64,000 nucleotides of DNA, from assembly GCF_044324875.1 (NCBI RefSeq), contig NZ_CP172185.1; one strand, written 5' to 3'. Shown piece after piece: positions 11,635 to 46,195 of the stretch. The number at the start of each line of letters is the position of its first letter. Position 1 is the stretch's first letter. The notes under the pieces were generated by a model. That model was not told where the DNA came from and did no database searches. It worked only from the letters and a program-made list of their open reading frames with translations. Source of the DNA: Escherichia coli. GTDB taxonomy: Bacteria; Pseudomonadota; Gammaproteobacteria; Enterobacterales; Enterobacteriaceae. A program made the translations under genes and the position numbers.

Positions 11635-12534
11635 TCAGTCCAGGTACTCTTTCATTACGCCAGCCAGCCACTGCATAAACAGGTTTACACGCCGGGAAAG
11701 CTCCCGACGCTGCGGATAAATCAGCGAAAGGGAGAGCGGCTCGGCACGGTAGCCAGGTAATACTTCAATAAGCCTCCCGGCACGCAGGGCTTCGCGCACG
11801 GCAATGCGCGGGATCTGAATAATCCCCAGACCGGCAAGACCGGCGGCGAGATAGTTTTCGCGACTGTTTACCGTCAACATGCCGCCAGACTTAAACCACT
11901 GGACGCCATTAACGCTGGCAACCTCAAAACCTAACGGATGTACACCCAGGTGCGGTGTGTAGCGCACTATTGCGTGCGAAGTCAGATCGTCGGGGCTTTG
12001 CGGATAACCAAAGCGCGTCAGATAGTGTGGACTGGCACAATTGACCACGGTCAGTTTGCCGAGGGGACGGGCGATAACGCCATCTTCCGGTGACGCGCCA
12101 GTGCGTATCACGCAATCAAAACCATCGTGAAGAATATCTACCGGACGGTCATGGCTACTCAGCTCCAGCTCAATTCCCGGATGCAGATAGAGAAATTCCG
12201 ACAGACGCGGCAGTAACAGGCTTTTCGCGATTCCTGGCGGGATGTCGATGCGTAATTTACCGCTGATACTGGTGGCATCCTGTTGAAACAGACCGTCCAG
12301 TTCGTTGAGATTACTCAACACATCTTTTGCCCGTTGATAATAGGTCATGCCTTCTGGCGTGAGTTTGACCCGCCGCGTGGTGCGCTGGAGAAGCTGGGTG
12401 CCAAGTTGATGTTCCAGTGCCTGTATCTGGCGCGAAACACTTCCCTTTGGCAAAGCAAAGAAATCCGCCGCGCGGGAAAAACTTTCCAGCTCCGCGACTT
12501 TGATGAACAACTGCATTGCGTGAATTTTATCCAT
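11635..12534 (-). CDS. yhjC: LysR-family transcriptional regulator YhjC
   Basis: ORF 11635..12606 trimmed to ATG 12534 (MDKIHAMQLFIKVAELESFSRAA...), 299 aa; N-terminal LysR HTH. Confidence 0.9.
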   Translation of the reverse strand: MDKIHAMQLFIKVAELESFSRAADFFALPKGSVSRQIQALEHQLGTQLLQRTTRRVKLTPEGMTYYQRAKDVLSNLNELDGLFQQDATSISGKLRIDIPPGIAKSLLLPRLSEFLYLHPGIELELSSHDRPVDILHDGFDCVIRTGASPEDGVIARPLGKLTVVNCASPHYLTRFGYPQSPDDLTSHAIVRYTPHLGVHPLGFEVASVNGVQWFKSGGMLTVNSRENYLAAGLAGLGIIQIPRIAVREALRAGRLIEVLPGYRAEPLSLSLIYPQRRELSRRVNLFMQWLAGVMKEYLD

Positions 12535-13707: not shown

Positions 13708-15387
<1,680 letters not shown>

Positions 15388-15640
15388 TTATCGGGCTTTT
15401 CTTTAAGGGTAGTCATTCGCTCCGCCTGGTGGGCGACAAAGCGTGCGGTGGATCACGTTTATTAACCTGTCAAAAAATATAACGCACTAATATCCATGGA
15501 ATTTATAAAAATACAGATTTCGTGTTGTTTTTCATTTTCAGAACATTCAATCCTGCTCTCGCCGCAATCATGATATGCCATTCCTGATCTGGATAATAGG
15601 CATAGGCTATCTTATTGATAGTTTATATTCATGTAATTGA

Positions 15641-15654
15641 TTGATTCCTATCAA
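15641..15654. promoter_or_regulatory. FNR-consensus site upstream of yhjA
   Basis: ttgattcctatcaa is an exact TTGAT-N4-ATCAA match about 108 bp upstream of the yhjA start; yhjA is reported to be FNR/OxyR-regulated. Confidence 0.6.
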
Positions 15655-15761
15655 AAAGCGTATCTCCCTGTTTTTTATGATGGCTTTGTCTCGCAGAGAC
15701 GTTTGCAGCATTCTGGAAAATTTTCTGGGTCACAATAACTCACCACCGTGAGGGAAGAATA

Positions 15762-17159
15762 ATGAAAATGGTCTCACGTATTACCGCGATCGGCCTGGCT
15801 GGCGTCGCGATTTGCTATTTAGGGTTATCTGGTTATGTGTGGTACCACGATAATAAACGCAGTAAACAGGCCGATGTTCAGGCATCTGCTGTCAGTGAAA
15901 ATAATCAGGTTTTAGGCTTTCTCCGCGAAAAAGGATGCGACTATTGCCACACGCCTTCGGCAGAATTACCCGCCTATTATTATATTCCTGGCGCGAAACA
16001 GTTGATGGATTACGACATTAAGCTTGGATATAAATCTTTTAACCTCGAGGCCGTGCGTGCGGCTCTGCTGGCTGATAAACCCGTTTCGCAAAGCGATCTG
16101 AATAAGATTGAATGGGTGATGCAGTATGAAACCATGCCACCAACGCGTTATACCGCGCTACACTGGGCGGGTAAGGTGAGTGATGAAGAGCGGGCGGAAA
16201 TACTCGCCTGGATTGCAAAACAGCGCGCGGAATATTACGCCAGCAATGACATTGCTCCGGAGCATCGCAATGAACCGGTGCAGCCCATCCCGCAAAAACT
16301 GCCTACCGATGCGCAAAAAGTGGCGTTGGGCTTTGCGCTGTATCACGATCCCCGTTTATCGGCGGATAGCACCATTTCATGCGCTCATTGCCATGCGTTG
16401 AATGCGGGGGGCGTCGATGGCAGAAAAACATCGATTGGTGTTGGTGGCGCAGTGGGGCCGATTAACGCGCCGACGGTATTTAACTCAGTATTTAACGTTG
16501 AGCAGTTCTGGGATGGTCGTGCGGCAACATTGCAGGATCAGGCTGGTGGACCGCCGTTGAATCCGATTGAAATGGCGTCGAAATCCTGGGACGAAATTAT
16601 TGCTAAGCTGGAAAAAGATCCGCAGCTTAAAGCGCAGTTCCTTGAAGTCTATCCGCAAGGTTTCAGTGGCGAAAATATTACTGATGCCATTGCTGAATTT
16701 GAGAAAACATTAATTACGCCGGATTCCCCATTTGATAAATGGTTGCGTGGAGATGAGAATGCGCTGACGGCACAACAGAAAAAAGGCTATCAATTATTCA
16801 AAGATAATAAATGTGCAACTTGTCATGGTGGTATTATTCTCGGCGGACGTTCCTTCGAACCGTTGGGGCTGAAAAAAGACTTTAACTTTGGTGAAATTAC
16901 GGCGGCGGATATTGGTCGTATGAATGTTACTAAAGAAGAGCGCGATAAATTGCGTCAGAAAGTACCCGGTTTACGTAACGTTGCACTAACGGCACCGTAC
17001 TTCCATCGCGGTGATGTGCCGACGCTGGACGGGGCGGTGAAACTGATGTTGCGCTATCAGGTAGGCAAAGAGCTGCCGCAGGAGGATGTGGATGATATCG
17101 TAGCTTTCCTGCACAGTCTGAACGGGGTTTACACGCCGTATATGCAGGATAAACAATAA
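15762..17159 (+). CDS. yhjA: Cytochrome c peroxidase YhjA (Ccp), di/tri-heme
   Basis: 465-aa ORF with CXXCH heme motifs (CDYCH, CAHCH, CATCH) and N-terminal membrane anchor. Confidence 0.93.
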   Translation: MKMVSRITAIGLAGVAICYLGLSGYVWYHDNKRSKQADVQASAVSENNQVLGFLREKGCDYCHTPSAELPAYYYIPGAKQLMDYDIKLGYKSFNLEAVRAALLADKPVSQSDLNKIEWVMQYETMPPTRYTALHWAGKVSDEERAEILAWIAKQRAEYYASNDIAPEHRNEPVQPIPQKLPTDAQKVALGFALYHDPRLSADSTISCAHCHALNAGGVDGRKTSIGVGGAVGPINAPTVFNSVFNVEQFWDGRAATLQDQAGGPPLNPIEMASKSWDEIIAKLEKDPQLKAQFLEVYPQGFSGENITDAIAEFEKTLITPDSPFDKWLRGDENALTAQQKKGYQLFKDNKCATCHGGIILGGRSFEPLGLKKDFNFGEITAADIGRMNVTKEERDKLRQKVPGLRNVALTAPYFHRGDVPTLDGAVKLMLRYQVGKELPQEDVDDIVAFLHSLNGVYTPYMQDKQ

Positions 17160-17171
17160 TTAATTTAATCG

Positions 17172-17200
17172 CCCGAACAGGAATGTTCGGGTGATTTTTA
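17172..17200 (+). terminator. Rho-independent terminator after yhjA
   Basis: hairpin cccgaacaggaatgttcggg followed by tgattttta. Confidence 0.7.
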
Positions 17201-17270
17201 TTGCGATAATAAAGTCTGTTTTTAATATTATCATGTTAAATGTTTATATTATAAAAAGTCGTTTTTCTGC

Positions 17271-17290
17271 TTAGGATTTTGTTATTTAAA
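17271..17290. promoter_or_regulatory. GAD box (GadE/GadX binding site) upstream of gadA
   Basis: ttaggattttgttatttaaa is an exact match to the 20-bp GAD box as I recall it, about 80 bp upstream of the gadA ATG. Confidence 0.8.
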
Positions 17291-17369
17291 TTAAGCCCGT
17301 AATGCCTTGCTTCCATTGCGGATAAATCCTACTTTTTTATTGCCTTCAAATAAATTTAAGGAGTTCGAA

Positions 17370-18770
17370 ATGGACCAGAAGCTGTTAACGGATTTCCGCT
17401 CAGAACTACTCGATTCACGTTTTGGCGCAAAGGCCATTTCTACTATCGCGGAGTCAAAACGATTTCCGCTGCATGAAATGCGCGATGATGTCGCATTCCA
17501 GATTATCAATGATGAATTATATCTTGATGGCAACGCTCGTCAGAACCTGGCCACTTTTTGCCAGACCTGGGACGACGAAAACGTCCATAAATTGATGGAT
17601 TTGTCGATCAATAAAAACTGGATCGACAAAGAAGAATATCCGCAATCTGCAGCCATCGACCTGCGTTGCGTAAACATGGTTGCCGATCTGTGGCATGCGC
17701 CTGCGCCGAAAAATGGTCAGGCCGTTGGCACCAACACCATTGGTTCTTCCGAGGCCTGTATGCTCGGCGGGATGGCGATGAAATGGCGTTGGCGCAAGCG
17801 TATGGAAGCCGCAGGTAAGCCGACCAACAAACCAAACCTGGTGTGCGGTCCGGTACAAATCTGCTGGCATAAATTTGCCCGCTACTGGGATGTGGAGCTG
17901 CGTGAGATCCCTATGCGCCCCGGTCAGTTGTTTATGGACCCGAAACGCATGATTGAAGCCTGCGACGAAAACACCATCGGCGTGGTGCCGACTTTTGGCG
18001 TGACCTACACCGGTAACTATGAGTTCCCGCAGCCGCTGCACGATGCGCTGGATAAATTCCAGGCCGACACCGGTATCGACATCGACATGCACATCGACGC
18101 TGCCAGCGGTGGCTTCCTGGCACCGTTCGTTGCCCCGGATATCGTCTGGGACTTCCGCCTGCCGCGTGTGAAATCGATCAGTGCTTCAGGCCATAAATTC
18201 GGTCTGGCTCCGCTGGGCTGCGGCTGGGTTATCTGGCGTGATGAAGAAGCGCTGCCGCAGGAACTGGTGTTCAACGTTGACTACCTCGGTGGTCAGATTG
18301 GGACTTTCGCCATCAACTTCTCCCGCCCGGCGGGTCAGGTAATTGCACAGTACTATGAATTCCTGCGCCTCGGTCGTGAAGGCTATACCAAAGTACAGAA
18401 CGCCTCTTACCAGGTTGCCGCTTATCTGGCGGATGAAATCGCCAAACTGGGGCCGTATGAGTTCATCTGTACCGGTCGCCCGGACGAAGGCATCCCGGCG
18501 GTTTGCTTCAAACTGAAAGAGGGTGAAGATCCGGGATACACCCTGTACGACCTCTCTGAACGTCTGCGTCTGCGCGGCTGGCAGGTTCCGGCCTTCACTC
18601 TCGGCGGTGAAGCCACCGACATCGTGGTGATGCGCATTATGTGTCGTCGCGGCTTCGAAATGGACTTTGCTGAACTGTTGCTGGAAGACTACAAAGCCTC
18701 CCTGAAATATCTCAGCGATCACCCGAAACTGCAGGGTATTGCCCAGCAGAACAGCTTTAAACACACCTGA
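17370..18770 (+). CDS. gadA: Glutamate decarboxylase A (PLP-dependent)
   Basis: ORF 17307..18770 trimmed to ATG 17370 ([21 protein letters not shown]...), 466 aa; adjacent to gadX, so the gadA rather than gadB paralog. Confidence 0.95.
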
Positions 18771-18789
18771 TAACATAACGTTGTAAAAA

Positions 18790-18836
18790 CCGAATGCCCA
18801 ACCTTTAAAAAACAGTTGGGCATTCGGTTGCTTATT
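18790..18836 (+). terminator. Rho-independent terminator after gadA
   Basis: hairpin ccgaatgcccaac...gttgggcattcgg followed by ttgcttatt. Confidence 0.7.
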
Positions 18837-19129
18837 AATCGCAATAATATATTGGCTGTCTATTCATCGTGTTGATAAGATATATGTTATATGAATGTTT
18901 ATTCAGTGTAACGGATATTTTTAATGTCACTACAAGGTATTATTTGCTTGCTATTAATTTCACTGCGTTCTTAAGCACGCCTTTTGTATTATAAATCCAG
19001 TCATCCTGCCCGTAGATTATCATCCTGTTTTCCCGCTTCGTTAAAATTTATTTATCAATCAATTTGACTTAAGAGGGCGGCGTGCTACATTAATAAACAG
19101 TAATATGTTTATGTAATATTAAGTCAACT

Positions 19130-19954
19130 ATGCAACCACTACATGGTAATTGTCTAATTGCGTACGCAAGACATAAATATATTCTCACCATGGTTAATGG
19201 TGAATATCGCTATTTTAATGGCGGTGATCTGGTTTTTGCGGATGCAAGCCAAATTCAAGTGGATAAGTGTGTTGAGAATTTCGTATTAGTTTCAAGAGAC
19301 ACGCTTTCATTATTTCTCCCGATGCTCAAGGAGGAGGCATTAAAACTTCATGCACATAAAAAAGTTCCTGCATTACTCGTTCATCACTGTACCAGAGATA
19401 TTCCTGTTTTTCAGGAAGTTGCGCAACTATCGCAGAATAAGAATCTTCGCTATGCAGAAATGCTACGTAAAAGGGCATTAATCTTTGCGTTGTTATCTGT
19501 TTTTCTTGAGGATACGCAGTTTATACCGTTACTTCTGAACGTGTTGCAACCGAATATGCGAACACGAGTTTGTACGGTCATCAATAATAATATCGCCCAT
19601 GAGTGGACATTAGCCCGAATCGCTAGCGAATTGTTGATGAGTCCAAGCCTGTTAAAGAAAAAATTGCGCGAAGAAGGTACGTCATATTCACAGTTGCTTA
19701 CTGAGTGTAGAATGCAGCGTGCTTTACAACTTATTGTTATATATGGTGTTTCAATTAAGCGAGTTGCAGTATCCTGTGGATATCACAGCGTGTCGTATTT
19801 CATTTACGTTTTTCGAAATTATTATGGGATGACGCCCACAGAGTATCAGGAGCGATCGGCGCAGGAATTACCGAACTGTGGCTCGGCGGCAAGTATGGCT
19901 GCGCAAGGGAATTTTTACGGCACTGACCGTTCTACGGAAGGAATAAGATTATAG
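19130..19954 (+). CDS. gadX: AraC-family acid-resistance regulator GadX
   Basis: 274-aa ORF with C-terminal AraC-type HTH; recognised as GadX with several substitutions relative to my recollection of the K-12 protein. Confidence 0.93.
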   Translation: MQPLHGNCLIAYARHKYILTMVNGEYRYFNGGDLVFADASQIQVDKCVENFVLVSRDTLSLFLPMLKEEALKLHAHKKVPALLVHHCTRDIPVFQEVAQLSQNKNLRYAEMLRKRALIFALLSVFLEDTQFIPLLLNVLQPNMRTRVCTVINNNIAHEWTLARIASELLMSPSLLKKKLREEGTSYSQLLTECRMQRALQLIVIYGVSIKRVAVSCGYHSVSYFIYVFRNYYGMTPTEYQERSAQELPNCGSAASMAAQGNFYGTDRSTEGIRL

Positions 19955-19970
19955 AGTTTTACTCAGACAT

Positions 19971-20076
19971 AAAAAAAACCCGGCATAGGGGACCGGGAAG
20001 AGGATAGTCTGCCGTCTCCAGACTAATAAACCGTTATAACACTCCCTGTTGGCACGGGAAACTTTGTGCTCTCAGT
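19971..20076 (-). ncRNA. gadY: GadY small RNA, antisense to the gadX 3' end
   Basis: minus strand reads actgagagcacaaagtttcccgtgccaacagggagtgttataacgg...cccggtcccctatgccgggtttttttt, matching the GadY sequence I recall, with an intrinsic terminator. Confidence 0.8.
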
Positions 20077-20322
20077 AAGTTAAATATAACTTTTACTGGA
20101 AATAAGATCAGCCATTTTTTTATAAACATAAGCTATACGCTGTGCGAAAATATATTCGTGCTGCATTTACTTATTATCAATTAACTGTTATGCAAAACTA
20201 CTTTGTGGATAAATTTTGGTCCTACCAAATCTGGCAGTTTTTGCGCTAAGAAACAGTCTGGCATCATTTCATTAGTATACTGAAATTGAAATAATCGCAG
20301 TAATGAAATATAAGGGATAGTC

Positions 20323-21051
20323 ATGACTCATGTCTGCTCGGTGATCCTCGTTCGTCGTTCATTCGATATTTATCATGAACAGCAAAAAATATCGTTGCAC
20401 AACGAGAGTATCCTGTTACTGGATAAAAATTTGGCAGACGATTTTACGTTTTGTTCACCGGATACGCGACGACTGGATATCGATGAGCTGACAGTTTGCC
20501 ATTACTTACAAAATATTCGTCAGATACCACGCAATTTAGGGTTACATAGCAAAGACCGTCTGTTAATTAACCAGTCACCCCCCATGCCGCTGGTGACGGC
20601 GATTTTTGATAGTTTCAATGACTCCGGGGTAAATTCGCCGATACTGAGCAAAATGCTCTATCTTTCCTGTTTATCGATGTTTTCTCATAAGAAAGAACTG
20701 ATCCCCTTACTTTTCAATAGTATCAGTACTGTTTCAGGAAAAGTTGAACGCCTTATTAGCTTTGATATCGCCAAACGTTGGTATCTGCGCGATATTGCGG
20801 AAAGAATGTATACCAGCGAGAGTCTAATCAAAAAAAAGTTGCAGGATGAAAATACCTGTTTCAGTAAAATATTACTCGCCTCCAGGATGTCGATGGCCAG
20901 ACGATTACTCGAGTTACGTCAAATTCCTCTGCATACTATTGCGGAAAAATGTGGCTATAGCAGTACATCGTACTTTATAAACACATTTCGACAATATTAT
21001 GGTGTAACGCCACATCAGTTTGCGCAACATTCGCCAGGTACCTTTTCCTGA
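20323..21051 (+). CDS. gadW: AraC-family acid-resistance regulator GadW
   Basis: 242-aa ORF (MTHVCSVIL...), AraC-type HTH; recognised as GadW. Confidence 0.93.
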   Translation: MTHVCSVILVRRSFDIYHEQQKISLHNESILLLDKNLADDFTFCSPDTRRLDIDELTVCHYLQNIRQIPRNLGLHSKDRLLINQSPPMPLVTAIFDSFNDSGVNSPILSKMLYLSCLSMFSHKKELIPLLFNSISTVSGKVERLISFDIAKRWYLRDIAERMYTSESLIKKKLQDENTCFSKILLASRMSMARRLLELRQIPLHTIAEKCGYSSTSYFINTFRQYYGVTPHQFAQHSPGTFS

Positions 21052-21413
21052 CATATTTTGCATTTGAATATTGGTCAGGATCTCACACCTGCTTCATGTG
21101 AAACTCTTCCCTGATGATTTCTGCCGGGCTACCGGCTAGTTCTCTTTCGCAGTTTGCCAGGCGGTATAGGTATTTTCAGGAGGAAAAGACTCGGCATGTT
21201 TGGGATTATTAAGCTGACAATTCATACGATTACGGGAATGTGGGTCAGTATTGTGTTGTTTAAATTGATGACGAATGGCTGGAGTGGTTTCTACTTTCAG
21301 TGCTGTGTACTAAGCCTGGTATTCCTGACGGTTAGCTGGTTGTTGAGTGGTGAATGGTTAGCAGGAAAGAGTAAGGCTGAACCCTCACGTTCAACCTTAC
21401 TCTCATTTACACG

Positions 21414-24400
21414 TTACGCTTTTTTAAAGCGGGCAAAGAGATGTTCCACTACAACGAAAAAGACCGGAACGAAGTAAATTGCCAGCACTGTTGCGGCAAA
21501 CATCCCGCCCATCACGCCGGTACCTACCGCGTTTTGCGCGCCAGAACCGGCACCATGACTGATAACCAGCGGCAGCACGCCGAGAATAAAGGCCAGAGAG
21601 GTCATCAGGATTGGGCGTAAACGCATTCGCGCCGCTTCGATGATCGCCTCTATCGGCGTTTTCCCTTCTTTCTGCATCATCTCAACGGCAAATTCGACAA
21701 TCAGGATGGCGTTTTTGGCGGAAAGCCCGATGGTGGTCAGCAAACCAACCTGGAAGTAGACGTCATTACTTAAGCCGCGTAGATCGGTGGCCAGTAATGC
21801 GCCAACGACGCCTAACGGTACAACCAACATCACCGAGAACGGAATTGACCAGCTCTCATAAAGTGCGGCGAGGGCGAGGAACACCACGACCAGTGAAATG
21901 GCATACAGCGCGGGAGCCTGGTTTGAGGATAACGCTTCCTGATACGACAGTCCGGTCCATGAGTAGCCGACGCCTGCCGGAAGTTTAGCGACCAGGTCTG
22001 CCATAAATTTCATGGCGTCACCGGTACTTTTCCCGGCCGCCGCTTCACCTAAAATCTCCATTGACGGGATGCCGTTGTAGCGTTCCAGTCGCGGTGAACC
22101 ATAGGTCCATTCGGTAGACGAATAGGCAGAAAGCGGTGCCATCGTGCCAGAGGCGTTGCGTACATACCACTGGTTGATGTTATCCGGCAACATACGGAAC
22201 GGCGTGCCTGCCTGGACATACACTTTTTTCACCCGCCCCTGGTTGAGGAAGTCGTTCACGTAGCTGCTGCCGAAGGCGGTGGAAATTGTCTGGTTGATAT
22301 CAGACAGCGCCACACCCATTGCCTCGGCTTTCGCGGCGTTGACGTTCACTTTGAACATCGGTGTATCTTCCAGGCCGTTCGGGCGTACCCCGGTGACTTG
22401 ATTCGGTGATTGCGCTGCCAGTGATAATAGCTCGTTTCGCGCCTGGGTCAGTTTTTCGTGTCCCAGGTTGCCGTTGTCCAGCAGTTCCATATCAAAACCT
22501 GACGCGGTACCCAGTTCAGCCACCGCGGGTAAGTTGAACGGGAAGACGACGGCTTTATTGATACTGCTTAACGCAATCATTGCCCGCTGAATGATCGCGG
22601 TAACCGAGTTTTCCTCACCGACACGTTCAGACCACGGTTTGAGGCTGATAAACGCCAGACCGTTGTTTTGCCCCTGGCCGCTGAAGCCAAAGCCGCCAAC
22701 GGTAAACACCGACTGAACATTATCTTTCTCTTTAGTCAGATAATAATCCGTCACCTGTTGCAGCACTTTCGTGGTGTTAACCATGGTGGCACCGGAAGGT
22801 AACTGCGCGGTGGTCATAAATACCCCCTGATCCTCTTCTGGTAAGAAAGAGGTCGGCGTGCGCAGGAACAGCACCGCCATCCCGGCGCAAATCAGCAGGT
22901 AGACCACCATGTAGCGACCGGTACAACGCAACAGCGAGCGGGTGCTGTCGGTATAGTGCTGAGTTGATTTTTCAAACAGTGTGTTGAAGCGTGCGAACAG
23001 GGCGTTAGGTTTGTGACCACCTTCCGGCGCGGCTTTCAGAATGGTGGCGCACAGGGCAGGGGTCAGGCTCATTGCCACAAATACTGAAAGCAGCATGGAG
23101 GAGATCAGCGTGATGGAGAACTGGCGGTAGATCTCCCCGGTTGCACCGCTCATAAAGGCCATCGGCATAAACACTGCGGAAAGAACAACGGCAATCCCGA
23201 CCAGCGCACGTTGGATCTGCCCCATCGATTTATGCGTCGCTTCCTTCGGCGGTAGCTTATCTTCTGCAATGACACGCTCGACGTTCTCCACCACCACGAT
23301 GGCGTCATCCACCAGTAACCCTATCGCCAGCACCATCCCGAACATAGTTAACGTGTTGATGGTGAAACCGACCGCCGACAAGATCGCAAACGTCCCGAGA
23401 ATAACCACCGGTACGGCAATCGTCGGGATGATTGTGGCACGGAAATTCTGCAAAAACAGATACATGACCAGGAAGACGAGGATGATAGCCTCAACCAGTG
23501 TTTTAAAAACTTCCTGAATAGAAATTTCGATAAACGGCGTGGTGTCGTAAGGATAAACCGTCTTCAGACTTGCGGGGAAATAGGCTGATAAGCGGTTCAG
23601 CTCCTCTTTGACTGCCCGTGAGGTATCCAGGGCGTTTGCTCCGGTAGCCAGTTTGATGGCGATCCCGGCAGCAGGTTTGCCGTTATAGCGCGCCACGGTG
23701 GAATAATCTTCCGCTCCAAGTTCGACGCGGGCGACATCACGCAGCAGCACTTGCGAACCATCTTGCTGAACTTTCAACAGGATTTTGCCAAATTCTTCCG
23801 GCGTTTGCAGACGCGTCTGCACAATGATCGAGGCGTTTAGTTGCTGGTCTGCCGCCTGTGGCATGCCACCCAGTTGACCACCGGAAATCTGGTTGTTTTG
23901 CACCTTAATCTGGGAAATAACATCGGAAGGTACCAGATTGTATTTATTGAGTTTTTGCGGGTCCAGCCAGATACGCATGGCGTACTCGGAACCAAAGAGC
24001 TGTACGCTACCAACGCCCGCGGTACGGCTTAGCGGGTCTTTGATATTAGACGCTACATAGTCCGCGATATCGTACTGGTTGAGGCTGCCGTTATCAGAAA
24101 TAAACGCCGCTACCATCAGGATATTACTGCTCGACTTATCGACGCTAATCCCCTGCTGCTGCACCGCTTCAGGTAATGAAGGCATAGCGAGTTGCAGTTT
24201 ATTTTGCACCTGAACCTGTGCGATATCAGGCGATGTCCCAGTCTCGAAGGTCAGAGTAATAGAGGCATTACCCGCCGCATCACTGGTTGAAGACATGTAC
24301 ATCAGGCCATCAAGCCCATTCATATTTTGCTCAATCACCTGAGTGACCGAGTCTTCTACCGTTTGCGCATCGGCACCTGGATAGGTAGCGCTGATGGTAA

Positions 24401-24527
24401 TGGTCGGTGGCGCAATCTGCGGATACTGCGCAACCGGTAAGTTCATGATTGCCAGACCGCCTGCAAGCATCATAATAATGGCAAGTACCCAGGCAAAAAC
24501 CGGGCGATCAATAAAATAGTTAGCCAT
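21414..24527 (-). CDS. mdtF: RND multidrug efflux pump inner-membrane subunit MdtF
   Basis: 1037-aa ORF, AcrB-like RND transporter; follows mdtE in the same orientation. Confidence 0.95.
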
Positions 24528-24551
24528 GAAAGTCCCCTTAAGCCTGCAACG

Positions 24552-25709
24552 TTATTGTTTCGATTCGGTGCTGGCGTTTTCCTGGCTGGAGGAAATTGCT
24601 CGTGCTTTGATACCCGGACGAATGCGTTGCAAACCGGAAACGATCACCCGATCGCCAGCCTGTAAGCCAGAGGTGACGACCCACTGGTCGCCGATGGCTT
24701 TGCTGGCTTCAATTTCACGTAGCTGCACGACATCGTCTTTATCCAGAATGAGCGCCGTTGCTTTACCCTGGGCGTTGTGGGTGACGCCTTCCTGCGGCAC
24801 CAGTAATACATTCTGGCGGCTACCTTCATCCACTAATGCCGTGACATACATGCCAGGCAGCAAGTCACCATTTGGGTTGGGGAAAATCGCCCGTAACGTC
24901 ACGGAGCCCGTGGTTTCATCCACCGTCGGGTCGGAGAATTTCAGCGTGCCGGTCTGGCTGTAACGTTTACCATTTTCCAGATTGAGCTGTACTGGCGTAC
25001 TGCCCTGAACCTGTTTGATTTGCCCACTGGCGACCTCTTCTTTCATACGCAAGAAATCCTGCACCGACTGCGTGAGATCGACATAAATCGGGTCCAGACG
25101 TTGTACGGTAACCAGCGAATCTGCCTGATTAGCGGTAACGAGTGCGCCGACGGTCACCGACGATTTCCCGCTGACGCCCGTAATCGGCGAGGTGACATTT
25201 GCGTATTGCAGGTTGATAGTCGCCTGTTCAACAGCCGCTTTGGCGACGGTGACATTGGCTTCTGCTTCATTCAACTGGGTGCGCGCGGTGTCGTAATCCT
25301 GACGGCTAACGTAGTTGGTCTTCAGCAACGATGCCTGGCGGTTAAAGGTGATGCGGGCATTGCTGGCGGTAGAGAGCGCTTTCGCCAGCGTGCCTTTGGC
25401 GGAGTTCAGCTCGGCCTGTAAAGGTGCAGGGTCAATCTGGTAAAGCGAATCGCCCTGGTTCACTTTATCGCCTTCGATAAAGTTGCGTTTAATGATAATA
25501 CCGCCCACCTGGGGACGTATCTCGGCAACTTCATAAGGAACGGTTCTACCGGGCAATTCGCTCAACACATTGACCGAACCGGGGGAGAGTGTGACGACAC
25601 CGACCTCAGGCGTCATGGCTGCGGCGTTTTCCGCCGATTTGTCATCGCAGGCGGTGAGCATCGCGCCGCAGAATAACAACGGTATTAACAGCTTTCTTCT
25701 TCTGTTCAT
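24552..25709 (-). CDS. mdtE: RND efflux membrane fusion (periplasmic adaptor) protein MdtE
   Basis: 385-aa ORF with lipoprotein signal (LLFCGAMLTAC); AcrA-like adaptor. Confidence 0.95.
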   Translation of the reverse strand: MNRRRKLLIPLLFCGAMLTACDDKSAENAAAMTPEVGVVTLSPGSVNVLSELPGRTVPYEVAEIRPQVGGIIIKRNFIEGDKVNQGDSLYQIDPAPLQAELNSAKGTLAKALSTASNARITFNRQASLLKTNYVSRQDYDTARTQLNEAEANVTVAKAAVEQATINLQYANVTSPITGVSGKSSVTVGALVTANQADSLVTVQRLDPIYVDLTQSVQDFLRMKEEVASGQIKQVQGSTPVQLNLENGKRYSQTGTLKFSDPTVDETTGSVTLRAIFPNPNGDLLPGMYVTALVDEGSRQNVLLVPQEGVTHNAQGKATALILDKDDVVQLREIEASKAIGDQWVVTSGLQAGDRVIVSGLQRIRPGIKARAISSSQENASTESKQ

Positions 25710-26047
25710 TTTAGTCCCTGAAAATTCTTGAGAAATAACGGTTCTTTAAATTGCGCGCGAGGAGAGATATGAGGGATTTACAGACCAGCGGCATAGTGGG
25801 GTTGTCAGCCAGTAAGGTGGGATACAGGCATAGTGATCGACATGGTGAGGTCAACGACAAAAAAAATGTTGCCGTTCTGCCAACAGTTCCTGCCAGCATT
25901 CGGGCAACGAAGGGTTCTACTGGTGGATACATATACCAGGGGAATAAAGTCGTTTTCGCCTCTCCTTTAGTAATCACCGGGGGTAATGAAATCAGCATCT
26001 GCATCCCTCGTCATGCCAGCCATCAATTTCAGTTGCTTATGTCCTGA

Positions 26048-26575
26048 CTAAAAATAAGATGTGATACCCAGGGTGACGATGTCGCTCATACGTCTTAGTT
26101 TCAGCTTGTACATAATGTTGAATTTCTGAATCTTTAATGTTTGTTGCGAAATATTGAGCGTCGACGTGATATTGCTTTCATTTTTATTTTTCAGAATCAG
26201 TTGCATAATTTTGAACTGATTATGTGAAAAACATAATTGTGAATTCTTATGGGGCAAGTGTTTACCATAAGTAATCTCAAGAAGATTTTTGATACTTTCT
26301 TTGCGGCTAACAAAATAAATAGGCGCTTTAGCTTTTAGTTTACTGATGTGATAAGGTGCCAAAACAATAATTCTCTCGGCATCTAATTTCTCCAGAAATT
26401 TAATCGCTTCTTCATCAAGGATATGATTGTGATAGGTATCAATGATAACCTTGAAGGGTTTATTGCCTACTTTTTTGATCTCTGACAGGGAATTGATTTT
26501 TATCATTTCGTGATTATCTTTCAACTGCCAAAAGCCCTGTAAAAGAAAAGAATCTTTCGTCATGAGAAAAATCAT
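26048..26575 (-). CDS. gadE: LuxR-family acid-resistance master regulator GadE
   Basis: ORF 26048..26653 trimmed to ATG 26575 (MIFLMTKDSFLLQGFWQLKD...), 175 aa. Confidence 0.93.
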   Translation of the reverse strand: MIFLMTKDSFLLQGFWQLKDNHEMIKINSLSEIKKVGNKPFKVIIDTYHNHILDEEAIKFLEKLDAERIIVLAPYHISKLKAKAPIYFVSRKESIKNLLEITYGKHLPHKNSQLCFSHNQFKIMQLILKNKNESNITSTLNISQQTLKIQKFNIMYKLKLRRMSDIVTLGITSYF

Positions 26576-26884
26576 AACTTGCTCCTTAGCCGTTATCGTT
26601 TCGAACATGTCATCCTTTTCATTATTTACATCCTTGTCCGAATCGTTGTTCAATATAGTAAACGCCTATAAGAACTTTGCCCTTCGTGAACTAATACGTC
26701 TATTAACACTAATCAATACTTCAGATTTATCCATCACGCACTCCATATATTGATCCTAAGTAAGATTCCTGGTTGTTATCAATTTGTAAATGGTAAACAA
26801 AAAGTTAACGTTTGCGGATTACTGCCCAAGAATAAGTTATCAATAACCAGTTTGTGATCTCTGAAGAATATTACTAAAGTTAAA

Positions 26885-26956
26885 ATGTAATCCGATTTAA
26901 ATATCGAGTCTCCTTGTTTCGACTTAAGCTGGCAATTGGATTGCCAGCTTTCTTTT
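26885..26956 (+). ncRNA. Candidate antisense sRNA in the gadE leader (ArrS/GadF-like); 5' end uncertain
   Basis: plus-strand hairpin agctggcaattggattgccagct followed by ttctttt at 26927..26956 would terminate a transcript antisense to the long gadE 5' UTR; ArrS is reported at such a position in K-12. Confidence 0.35.
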
Positions 26957-27373
26957 AACGCATTGAAATTACCTGAGTAAATAACGCATTCATGTCTTCA
27001 GGTTTTTATATAGCGTCTGGAGACACGGATATTTATGCAATGTAATCAACGCCTGTTGCAAAAAAATGAACCCGGATTACTTATTTAACCGCCCATAGCA
27101 TCAACGCTTACGGAACTCTTTGTTCACTTTCCCACAGCACTTTTAAAACATTAAACCTGACTACGGAAAATATCAGCCATGATAATGTTTGAAATGGCTA
27201 ATTTGCCATGGAATGAAAAAAATTAGATGAAATTCAGTAGGTTGAAATAATCATCAGCAGGTAATTATTTCAATGATAGTGCGCAATTGATCTACAACGC
27301 TGTGTAGCGGAGAGAGTATTAATCGGATCATAGTCACATCAAGTGACTATGATCCGGGTGACAACAGGAATAA

Positions 27374-27946
27374 TTATTGCTGCTTAACGAACAAACTGGC
27401 GAAGCTGAACAGGCTGGCGGCGCTAAATATCAGTTCAATACCCACCAGTGTGGAAACCAAAGTTACAGACACCATCGGCGTTGCACCAAGGAATATCCAT
27501 GCAATGACGATATCCAGCACACCAATAACGAGCTGTAGCCAGCTGCCTTTCATTGAACGCTGACGATACCAACTCATCAGGCGAATAACCCCTGCAACAC
27601 AGAACAAACCGGCAATAAATGCCGCAATGGCAAAAATGCCCAGCTCCGGTGCGCGGATGAAGAAATAGCCGATCAATAAATAGGCGACTGCGACGAGGAA
27701 ACCGGATAATACCGGCCAGAAATTATGACTGCGGTTGCTGAATAATCCAACAATAAGCGCAACGCCCGAGCAGATTAATAATGCACCCACTACCGTGCTT
27801 AAAATATCGCCAGAGACGAACGGGAAACTGATACACAGCAACCCGACGATAAACAGTAGCACGGCAATAAACTGGATTGCTCTGCGATGCTTTTTCAGCA
27901 TCTCCAGATCAAACTTCAAAATTGTTGCCTTATCTATATATAACAT
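27374..27946 (-). CDS. hdeD: Acid-resistance inner membrane protein HdeD
   Basis: 190-aa ORF, multi-TM protein; divergent from hdeA. Confidence 0.93.
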   Translation of the reverse strand: MLYIDKATILKFDLEMLKKHRRAIQFIAVLLFIVGLLCISFPFVSGDILSTVVGALLICSGVALIVGLFSNRSHNFWPVLSGFLVAVAYLLIGYFFIRAPELGIFAIAAFIAGLFCVAGVIRLMSWYRQRSMKGSWLQLVIGVLDIVIAWIFLGATPMVSVTLVSTLVGIELIFSAASLFSFASLFVKQQ

Positions 27947-28200
27947 AGAACCACCCTATAAAATTAAGAAGAAAATCCCCTGCTATCAATCTATGCCAAA
28001 AACGCGTCTAAGAATGCAGTCGATTTAATAAAAATTTCCTAATTACAGTATCTGATGCATCTGTAACTCATTGTATTGAAATAAAAATATCTGATTTTGA
28101 TATTTTCCATCAACATGACATATACAGAAAACCAGGTTATAACCTCAGTGTCGAAATTGATTCGTGACGGCTCTTTCACTTTATAGTTGAGGATATTACG

Positions 28201-28533
28201 ATGAAAAAAGTATTAGGCGTTATTCTTGGTGGTCTGCTTCTTCTGCCAGTTGTGAGCAATGCAGCGGATGCGCAAAAAGCAGCTGATAACAAAAAACCGG
28301 TCAACTCCTGGACCTGTGAAGATTTCCTGGCTGTGGACGAATCCTTCCAGCCAACTGCAGTTGGTTTTGCTGAAGCGCTGAACAACAAAGATAAACCAGA
28401 AGATGCGGTTTTAGATGTTCAGGGTATTGCAACCGTAACCCCAGCTATCGTTCAGGCTTGTACTCAGGATAAACAAGCCAACTTTAAAGATAAAGTTAAA
28501 GGCGAATGGGACAAAATTAAGAAAGATATGTAA
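28201..28533 (+). CDS. hdeA: Periplasmic acid-stress chaperone HdeA
   Basis: 110-aa ORF with signal peptide (MKKVLGVILGGLLLLPVVSNA); recognised as HdeA. Confidence 0.95.
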   Translation: MKKVLGVILGGLLLLPVVSNAADAQKAADNKKPVNSWTCEDFLAVDESFQPTAVGFAEALNNKDKPEDAVLDVQGIATVTPAIVQACTQDKQANFKDKVKGEWDKIKKDM

Positions 28534-28648
28534 TTCCGGGAATGCGTTACATCGTACTTCCTTGCATATTGAACAGGCCGGAATATCTTCTTTAAAAGCA
28601 GCTATTCCTCCTGTTTGTATATAATCTCTATATTGAATGGGTTACAAA

Positions 28649-28975
28649 ATGAACATTTCATCTCTCCGTAAAGCGTTTATTTTTATGGGCGCTGTAGCGG
28701 CTTTGTCACTGGTGAACGCACAATCTGCGCTGGCAGCCAATGAATCCGCTAAAGATATGACCTGCCAGGAATTTATTGATCTGAATCCAAAAGCAATGAC
28801 ACCGGTTGCATGGTGGATGCTGCATGAAGAGACAGTATATAAAGGTGGCGATACCGTTACTTTAAATGAAACCGATCTCACTCAAATTCCTAAAGTGATC
28901 GAATACTGCAAGAAAAACCCGCAGAAAAATTTGTATACCTTCAAAAATCAAGCATCTAATGACTTGCCGAATTAA
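28649..28975 (+). CDS. hdeB: Periplasmic acid-stress chaperone HdeB
   Basis: ORF 28637..28975 trimmed to ATG 28649 (MNISSLRKAFIFMGAVAALSL...), 108 aa. Confidence 0.93.
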   Translation: MNISSLRKAFIFMGAVAALSLVNAQSALAANESAKDMTCQEFIDLNPKAMTPVAWWMLHEETVYKGGDTVTLNETDLTQIPKVIEYCKKNPQKNLYTFKNQASNDLPN

Positions 28976-28991
28976 TGAGGTACAAGTAAAA

Positions 28992-29036
28992 AGGAGTAGC
29001 AAGTTGAGCCATCTTGCTGCTCCTTTTTGCTTTTTT
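28992..29036 (+). terminator. Intrinsic terminator/attenuator between hdeB and yhiD
   Basis: hairpin aggagtagcaag...cttgctgctcct followed by ttttgcttttttat, ending 3 bp before the yhiD start. Confidence 0.6.
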
Positions 29037-29038
29037 AT

Positions 29039-29686
29039 ATGACAGCAGAATTTATTATACGTCTTATACTCGCAGCAATTGCCTGTGGCGCTATTGGCAT
29101 GGAAAGGCAAATGCGCGGCAAAGGAGCAGGGTTACGCACACATGTATTAATTGGCATGGGAAGCGCCCTGTTTATGATTGTTTCGAAATATGGTTTTGCT
29201 GACGTGCTGTCTTTAAATCACGTCGGACTGGACCCCAGCCGTATTGCAGCTCAGGTGGTGACGGGCGTCGGGTTTATCGGCGCAGGTAACATTCTCGTTC
29301 GTAACCAAAATATTGTAGGTCTGACGACAGCAGCGGATATCTGGGTGACCGCCGCCATTGGTATGGTTATTGGTAGCGGTATGTACGAACTGGGCATTTA
29401 TGGTTCAGTGATGACCTTGCTGGTGCTGGAAGTCTTCCATCAATTAACCTTCCGCCTGATGAACAAAAATTACCATTTACAGCTGACATTAGTGAACGGT
29501 AATACGGTATCAATGCTCGACTGGTTTAAGCAGCAAAAAATAAAAACGGATTTAGTTTCGTTGCAGGAAAGTGAAGATCATGAAGTGGTCGCCATTGATA
29601 TCCAGCTTCATGCCACAACGTCGATAGAAGATCTGTTGCGATTATTAAAAGGTATGGCAGGGGTGAAAGGCGTTTCAATTAGCTAA
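29039..29686 (+). CDS. yhiD: MgtC-family inner membrane protein YhiD
   Basis: ORF 29027..29686 trimmed to ATG 29039 (MTAEFIIRLILAAIACGAIGMERQ...), 215 aa. Confidence 0.92.
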   Translation: MTAEFIIRLILAAIACGAIGMERQMRGKGAGLRTHVLIGMGSALFMIVSKYGFADVLSLNHVGLDPSRIAAQVVTGVGFIGAGNILVRNQNIVGLTTAADIWVTAAIGMVIGSGMYELGIYGSVMTLLVLEVFHQLTFRLMNKNYHLQLTLVNGNTVSMLDWFKQQKIKTDLVSLQESEDHEVVAIDIQLHATTSIEDLLRLLKGMAGVKGVSIS

Positions 29687-35339: not shown

Positions 35340-35629
35340 CACGTTTGCGCTTAACAAAACACGACCATATGGATAACAAAACCATAGCATTTGCAAGGGA
35401 TAACGCACAGCGCTCTTCACTCCTGATGGGGCATATCGTTTTGCCTGACAAAGAGGGCGTGCTTTTGCGTATTTGCCGAGATACCAGGCAATTTCATGGG
35501 ATATAAACGCCTGTAAACTCACCCGGCGAATATTATCGCTCTGAATTTTAAATAAATTTATTTTTCGCCAGCCACCCCGGTATTAACCCAGGCAGCCAGC
35601 ATTTTTTATTTTCCTCATGGAGAATCGCT

Positions 35630-45960: not shown

Positions 45961-46108
45961 CAATACTATTAGCCAGTGGCTAACATTGCAAGAATTAGCG
46001 ATTTCTTCAGCTGGCGGAGGGAGCACTTCGGTATACATGGCAGTGAAAGAGGATTTATATACTTTCACCGGATTATCGCCGTACTAAGCCTTGTCCGAAT
46101 CCGGATGT

Positions 46109-46195
46109 AAAAAAACCGACTTCGCGTCGGTTTTTTTACTGTTCAGCCCTGAGTTGGTGGCTCTGGCTGGAGTGAGAATGCCATCATCTAACTTT
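46109..46195 (-). ncRNA. agrA: AgrA-like sRNA (dinQ antitoxin repeat); 5' end approximate
   Basis: second near-identical repeat unit with the same terminator hairpin and the ctctggctggagtgaga block; dinQ-proximal copy. Confidence 0.55.

Follow-up and report, generated by a model that had tools for sequence, protein, structure and literature searches.

GadY, a small regulatory RNA of E. coli, has been characterised since 2004. In K-12, it accumulates in the stationary phase and at low pH, its own promoter is RpoS-dependent, and a chromosomal gadY-promoter mutant reportedly regains both gadXW processing and acid resistance when a plasmid supplies GadY in trans. It is described as an Hfq-binding sRNA that is encoded between gadX and gadW on the opposite strand (PMC11300174), occurs at acidic pH as 105-, 90-, and 59-nt species, and activates the glutamate decarboxylase genes (PMC5686845); the sizes of approximately 105, 90, and 59 nt go back to Opdyke 2004, as cited in PMC5686845 and PMC11300174. 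Co-transcription of gadX and gadW, i.e., read-through from the former into the latter, is reported as experimentally shown in K-12 only (Opdyke 2011, as cited in PMC5694010 and PMC5029454). Although RNase III contributes to the cleavage, the reaction still proceeds in its absence, which suggests a further double-strand endonuclease (PMC3919570, PMC5029454), and the cleaved gadX and gadW transcripts are stated to be more stable in K-12 (PMC5029454). Double-stranded RNA fragments from the gadY locus are captured by p19 (PMC7373196), and repression of GadY by dCas13a is reported to render cells acid-sensitive (PMC10783499). Additionally, K-12 GadY is reported to bind CsrA with high affinity, with GGA motifs noted (PMC5694010), to contribute to AppY-dependent biofilm formation (PMC10057817), and to target sdiA (PMC11300174). 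The passages on mechanism drawn on here from PMC5029454, PMC5694010, PMC3919570, PMC10057817, PMC10783499, PMC5686845, and PMC7373196 summarise Opdyke et al. 2004, 2011 and Tramonti et al. 2008.

The window analysed here is a stretch of 64,000 nt from the E. coli contig NZ_CP172185.1 (assembly GCF_044324875.1). A whole-window Rfam scan revealed a full-length minus-strand match to the GadY family, RF00122, at 20079..19966 (model positions 1-114 of 114). This match reaches 150 bits (E = 8.3e-32; gathering score 45) and agrees with the family consensus at every position. With K-12 MG1655 gadY (b4452) as the query, BLASTN returned 106/106 identity at window positions 20076..19971, and the agreement is far greater than chance would give. 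In the K-12 MG1655 RefSeq record, b4452 occupies NC_000913.3 3664864..3664969 (106 nt) on the strand opposite to gadW (b3515) and gadX (b3516), between which it lies. Taken between these RefSeq boundaries, the full-length form measures 106 nt; the literature gives 105 nt, and the exact position of the 3' end in the U-run carries an uncertainty of approximately 1 nt. The initial annotation had placed GadY on the minus strand at positions that prove to coincide exactly with the transferred K-12 annotation, and the alignment to K-12 gadY that it proposed as a check is complete rather than poor. The locus is an already known sRNA gene at its usual place, 100% identical to the reference, and it can be read with high confidence as gadY, the cis-encoded antisense sRNA of the E. 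coli acid fitness island (Table 1).

The surrounding island is arranged as in K-12. Window positions of approximately 15050-29640 are colinear with K-12 3655000-3670000 in reversed orientation, and the order gadA-gadX-(gadY)-gadW-mdtF-mdtE-gadE-hdeD-hdeAB-yhiD corresponds to the canonical synteny. All of ccp, gadA, gadX, gadW, mdtF, mdtE, gadE, hdeD, hdeA, hdeB, and yhiD are full length and contain no internal stops. The spacing between the gadX stop and GadY is the same in K-12, in which gadY ends at 3664969 and the gadX CDS at 3664986. Between window positions 19940 and 20330, only 2 differences from K-12 occur in 391 nt, both beside the gadW start codon. The short ORFs that overlap the gadX-gadW intergenic region encode only 26-47 aa, and a coding reading of this region was rejected, as none of them has support.

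Table 1. Features of the gadX-gadY-gadW locus and of the related sRNA loci in the window; the last column gives the variable alignment columns among five E. coli genomes.
Feature	Coordinates	Strand	Basis or description	Variable columns
gadX, AraC-family acid-resistance activator, 274 aa, intact	19130..19954	+	ORF, stop TAG 19952-19954	7.5%
Spacer from gadX stop to GadY-complementary stretch, 16 nt	19955..19970	+	ORF end 19954, GadY 3' end 19971	
gadX-gadW intercistronic region, 368 nt	19955..20322	+	366/368 positions identical to K-12	
Block of spacer, GadY, and 60 nt of gadY promoter, 182 nt	19955-20136			0
Rest of gadX-gadW intergenic spacer				6.5%
gadY, small regulatory RNA GadY	19971..20076	-	Rfam RF00122 and 106/106 identity to K-12 b4452	
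gadY Rho-independent terminator	19971..19997	-	Terminator scan; present in MFE and consensus folds	
GadY stem-loop 2, RNA 52-72, GGA at RNA 58-60	20005..20025	-	MFE and alignment folds	
GadY stem-loop 1 (5'), RNA 1-47, GGA at RNA 32-34	20030..20076	-	MFE fold, Rfam consensus structure, alignment fold	
gadY -10 hexamer TATATT, -12 to -7 from 5' end 20076	20083..20088	-	Read from sequence; identical to K-12; putative assignment	
gadY weak -35-like hexamer CTGATC, 3/6 matches, 17-nt spacer	20106..20111	-	Read from sequence; putative assignment	
gadW, AraC-family regulator, 242 aa, intact, downstream gadXW cistron	20323..21051	+	ORF without internal stops; 98% aa identity to K-12	6.6%
gadF sRNA	25859-25949	-	K-12 comparison, 98.9% identity; annotated just downstream of gadE	
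arrS sRNA	26887-26956	+	K-12 comparison, 100% identity; K-12 annotates it between hdeD and gadE	

The putative promoter hexamers of gadY were assigned by hand, counting back from the annotated 5' end. A generic sigma-70 scan did not call the gadY promoter, since its -35 element is weak. In K-12, an 8-bp AppY motif is reported to overlap the gadY -35 element, and AppY to bind the gadY promoter (PMC10057817). At the opposite end, the terminator scan found a terminator-like hairpin on the minus strand, CCCGGTCCCCTATGCCGGG at 19997..19979, followed by T8/U8, TTTTTTTT at 19978..19971. The hairpin consists of a GC-rich 6-bp stem with a 7-nt loop at RNA positions 80-98, and together with the T8 tract it is likely the Hfq-binding 3' module of the RNA, by analogy with other Hfq-dependent sRNAs and in keeping with the accounts of Hfq binding in PMC11300174 and PMC5694010.

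The predicted fold of GadY agrees with the Rfam consensus structure. Its minimum free energy of -28.6 kcal/mol is not significantly more stable than that of shuffled sequence (z = -0.73). In stem-loop 2, the motif GGAGACG occupies the top of the stem and the loop; its GGA, which begins with the final stem pair and continues into the loop, is a candidate CsrA-binding site.

A mechanism can be proposed for this strain on the model of K-12. GadY would be transcribed from its own promoter, with TATATT as the -10 and the weak hexamer as the -35 element, towards gadX. Transcription would end at the terminator of hairpin and U8, whose final position, 19971, is the 17th base after the gadX stop codon, so the distance of 17 bp given by the initial annotation is accurate. 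Since the gadX-gadW intercistronic region lies opposite the GadY gene, the RNA is complementary over its entire length to the gadX 3' UTR or gadXW mRNA. The previously described overlap with the 3' end of gadX thus applies to the transcript, i.e., the 3' UTR or gadX-gadW intercistronic RNA; it does not apply to the coding sequence, from which GadY is separated by 16 nt. Likewise, the full complementarity claimed for the gadX 3' UTR and GadY follows from their antisense encoding and matters only if gadX transcription reads through. From the gadX stop to the gadW start, the terminator scan found no terminator-like site on the plus strand, in agreement with read-through of gadX into gadW; the gadXW mRNA would then carry the full GadY complement. 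Pairing of GadY with this mRNA would lead to endonucleolytic cleavage inside the duplex, in which RNase III and at least one other nuclease would participate. The cleavage would, in turn, yield more stable gadX and gadW transcripts and higher acid resistance. From the K-12 experiments, we infer expression, Hfq binding, cleavage, and the physiological effect in this strain. The K-12 mechanism is by far the most likely one to operate here, because the RNA, the promoter, and the target site are identical to those of K-12.

Of the 5426 complete E. coli genomes, 5412 carry the 114-nt GadY element with at least 99% identity, always on the chromosome; the whole 368-nt gadX-gadW spacer is more variable, with 95-99% identity in 2154 genomes. 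Positions 19938-20237 of the window contain zero differences from K-12, against a background of synonymous divergence from K-12 of 0.06-0.09 in neighbouring genes and 0.16 in gadX. The variable columns in Table 1 come from an alignment of five diverse E. coli, namely the window, K-12, ATCC 25922, UPEC132, and O157:H7, in which the block of spacer, GadY, and promoter is the invariant part.

Among the matches listed, non-K-12 RefSeq genomes (e.g., NZ_CP023820.1 and NZ_AP018488.1) carry no annotated feature under the GadY match, which makes GadY easy to miss. The gene is near-universal in E. coli, yet appears to be routinely unannotated.

Beyond the species, an exact 20-mer scan of 100,044 bacterial and archaeal species representatives (one genome each), which by its exact matching cannot prove the absence of GadY outside Escherichia, returned five loci, all in Escherichia: two E. 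coli records, E. whittamii, sp. E1V33, and sp. MOD1-EC7003, each with an Rfam GadY score of 123-150 bits. The linkage of GadY to gadX/gadW is kept in every Escherichia locus recovered. In the other Escherichia lineages, conservation starts at GadY +1 and stops directly after the U-run, with divergence in the spacer and immediately upstream of +1. This pattern is good evidence for purifying selection acting on the transcribed unit, in one or both strands. Among six Escherichia sequences, which are too similar for covariation analysis with only 2 substitutions and 1 indel, 0 of the 28 predicted pairs display a compensatory change, and both GadY substitutions, in E. whittamii and sp. E1V33, break predicted pairs. 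With pair-breaking and without compensatory changes, conservation argues for a constraint on primary sequence rather than on structure specifically. The sense gadXW RNA or DNA sites could be the object of such a constraint just as well.

It may accordingly be asked whether the invariant block is kept mainly for reasons other than the sRNA, with GadY as a secondary passenger. The candidates are a processing or stability element of the sense gadXW RNA, the gadY and gadW promoters, and DNA sites for GadX/GadW and AppY. Within E. coli, the invariance does exceed the transcript, since it takes in the 16-nt spacer and 60 nt of promoter as well, and the lack of covariation, the structure-breaking substitutions in other Escherichia, and the non-significant fold z-score all fit this reading. 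In distant Escherichia, however, conservation tracks the transcribed unit from GadY +1 to the U-run, and K-12 phenotypes on overexpression, repression, and deletion of GadY, as reported in PMC5029454, PMC10783499, and PMC10057817, speak for a role of the RNA itself. Moreover, both kinds of constraint are compatible, given that an antisense pair constrains both strands, and a mainly non-sRNA origin of the conservation is considered improbable.

A comparably small probability is assigned to the view that GadY acts mainly in trans rather than on the gadX 3' UTR, either by titration of CsrA, with consequences for biofilm and pgaABCD, or by pairing with mRNAs such as sdiA. Both GGA motifs are intact in this RNA (RNA 32-34 and 58-60), and the available accounts describe CsrA binding (PMC5694010), a role in AppY-dependent biofilm (PMC10057817), and sdiA targeting (PMC11300174). 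However, perfect complementarity to the gadXW RNA over the whole length, along with the linkage to gadX/gadW, argues that the cis target is primary and that the trans roles are additional. A cis-acting antisense RNA on the K-12 model thus remains the preferred reading of GadY in this strain.

The allele of gadX departs from that of K-12. Its identity to K-12 gadX is 94.2% at the nucleotide level and 93% at the amino acid level, with 19 amino acid differences, so the downstream output of the circuit could differ. By nucleotide differences, it lies 7 from ATCC 25922, 9 from UPEC132, 48 from K-12, and 50 from O157, and on this sequence basis gadX here is a B2-type allele. Identity to the gadX of the window is bimodal across 5415 genomes, at least 99% in 1344 and 90-95% in 3794. 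The flanks compared, 18755-19042 with the gadA-gadX spacer and 20093-21142 with the distal gadX-gadW spacer and gadW, are closer to K-12 and O157 than to B2. The locus therefore appears to be a recombination mosaic that has one junction close to the start of gadX and the second within the invariant GadY block; a literature search found no earlier description of this gadX allele mosaic. It is conceivable, if unlikely, that recombination exchanges gadX alleles among lineages by using the 182-nt block as a constant anchor of homology. Were the two GadX classes functionally distinct, GadY would represent a universal post-transcriptional adaptor for either class.

The gadA-gadX intergenic region at 18848-19042 is the most diverged stretch of the island, with 83-90% identity to K-12 and an 11-nt indel, and 31 differences per 140 nt separate it from ATCC 25922. 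This agrees with a published survey that places the most variable non-coding base pair of E. coli at 222 bp upstream of gadX (PMC11106028).

At the protein level, dN/dS relative to K-12 is 0.215 for gadX, 0.12 for gadW, and 0.01-0.05 for the other island genes. The initial annotation had called the gadX/gadY/gadW circuit complete, and this stands for the intact sequence of gadX, gadY, gadW, gadE, gadA, and the other island genes in the window; it does not extend beyond the window, outside which rpoS, hfq, rnc, csrA, and gadBC are located. Functional decoupling of the circuit in the presence of gadY, through the divergent B2-type GadX (19 amino acid changes and a dN/dS well above that of neighbouring non-regulator genes) or through differences in outside factors such as rpoS, which is frequently mutated in E. 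coli isolates, hfq, or rnc, is very improbable, as gadY with its promoter, gadW, gadE, and gadA are intact and the B2-type gadX, full length and at least 99% identical in 1344 genomes including ATCC 25922 and Nissle, points to a maintained rather than a decaying allele.

Two further sRNAs of the island, ArrS and GadF, are present in the window. ArrS is antisense to the gadE 5' UTR, and GadF is derived from the gadE 3' UTR. The arrS locus has no Rfam match at the gathering threshold. An Rfam match to ES205 (105 bits) at 25859-25930 on the minus strand coincides with gadF, such that the Rfam and RefSeq names refer to one locus. In E. coli strain 7/2 (NZ_CP023820.1), a CDS annotated as 'hypothetical protein', at positions 11815-12093 of the locus compared, lies between mdtE and gadE on the strand opposite to both; as it occupies the place of K-12 gadF, an annotation artefact is probable.

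Colinearity with K-12 ends near 29640, and an RNA thermometer of the shuA/chuA 5' UTR is matched by Rfam with 60 bits at 35601-35632 on the plus strand. The chu haem-uptake locus adjoins the acid fitness island, with hutW/chuW in the matches. With chu next to the island, the strain is not K-12-like (phylogroup A). Among complete RefSeq E. coli genomes, the best match over 24 kb reaches 99.6% (strain MEW). Farther along, the AgrB family sRNA occurs in two tandem minus-strand copies at 45872-45955 and 46107-46191, with 108 and 92 bits; these are the counterparts of the agrA/agrB antisense sRNAs at the dinQ locus of the arsR-gor region.

As GadY is identical to the reference, the finding has little meaning beyond annotation. 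It shows that, as far as sequence goes, a non-K-12, chu-positive E. coli has an intact post-transcriptional arm of the GadX/GadW acid-resistance circuit. The invariant GadY block between polymorphic flanks illustrates purifying selection on an antisense pair, and no new kind of system is involved.

The closest described system is K-12 gadY itself (RF00122; b4452 = IS183), with which the RNA of the window shares its sequence, promoter, terminator, and both GGA motifs, in addition to its position between gadX and gadW and its spacing to the gadX stop. The RNA displays no differences, and only the context differs, by the B2-type gadX and the 2 substitutions beside the gadW start. ArrS and GadF belong to the same island and the same regulon; however, they are associated with gadE rather than with gadX/gadW, and their sequences are unrelated to that of GadY. 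More distantly, the lambda OOP/cII-O pair and the type I antitoxin sRNAs that are cleaved together with their targets by RNase III resemble GadY in forming a long perfect antisense-mRNA duplex with RNase III involved in its cleavage, as described in PMC3919570. Unlike these systems, GadY is reported to have a positive outcome, in which the gadX and gadW transcripts become more stable (PMC5029454), and it is further set apart by Hfq binding and by additional interactions in trans and with CsrA, as outlined in PMC5694010 and PMC11300174.
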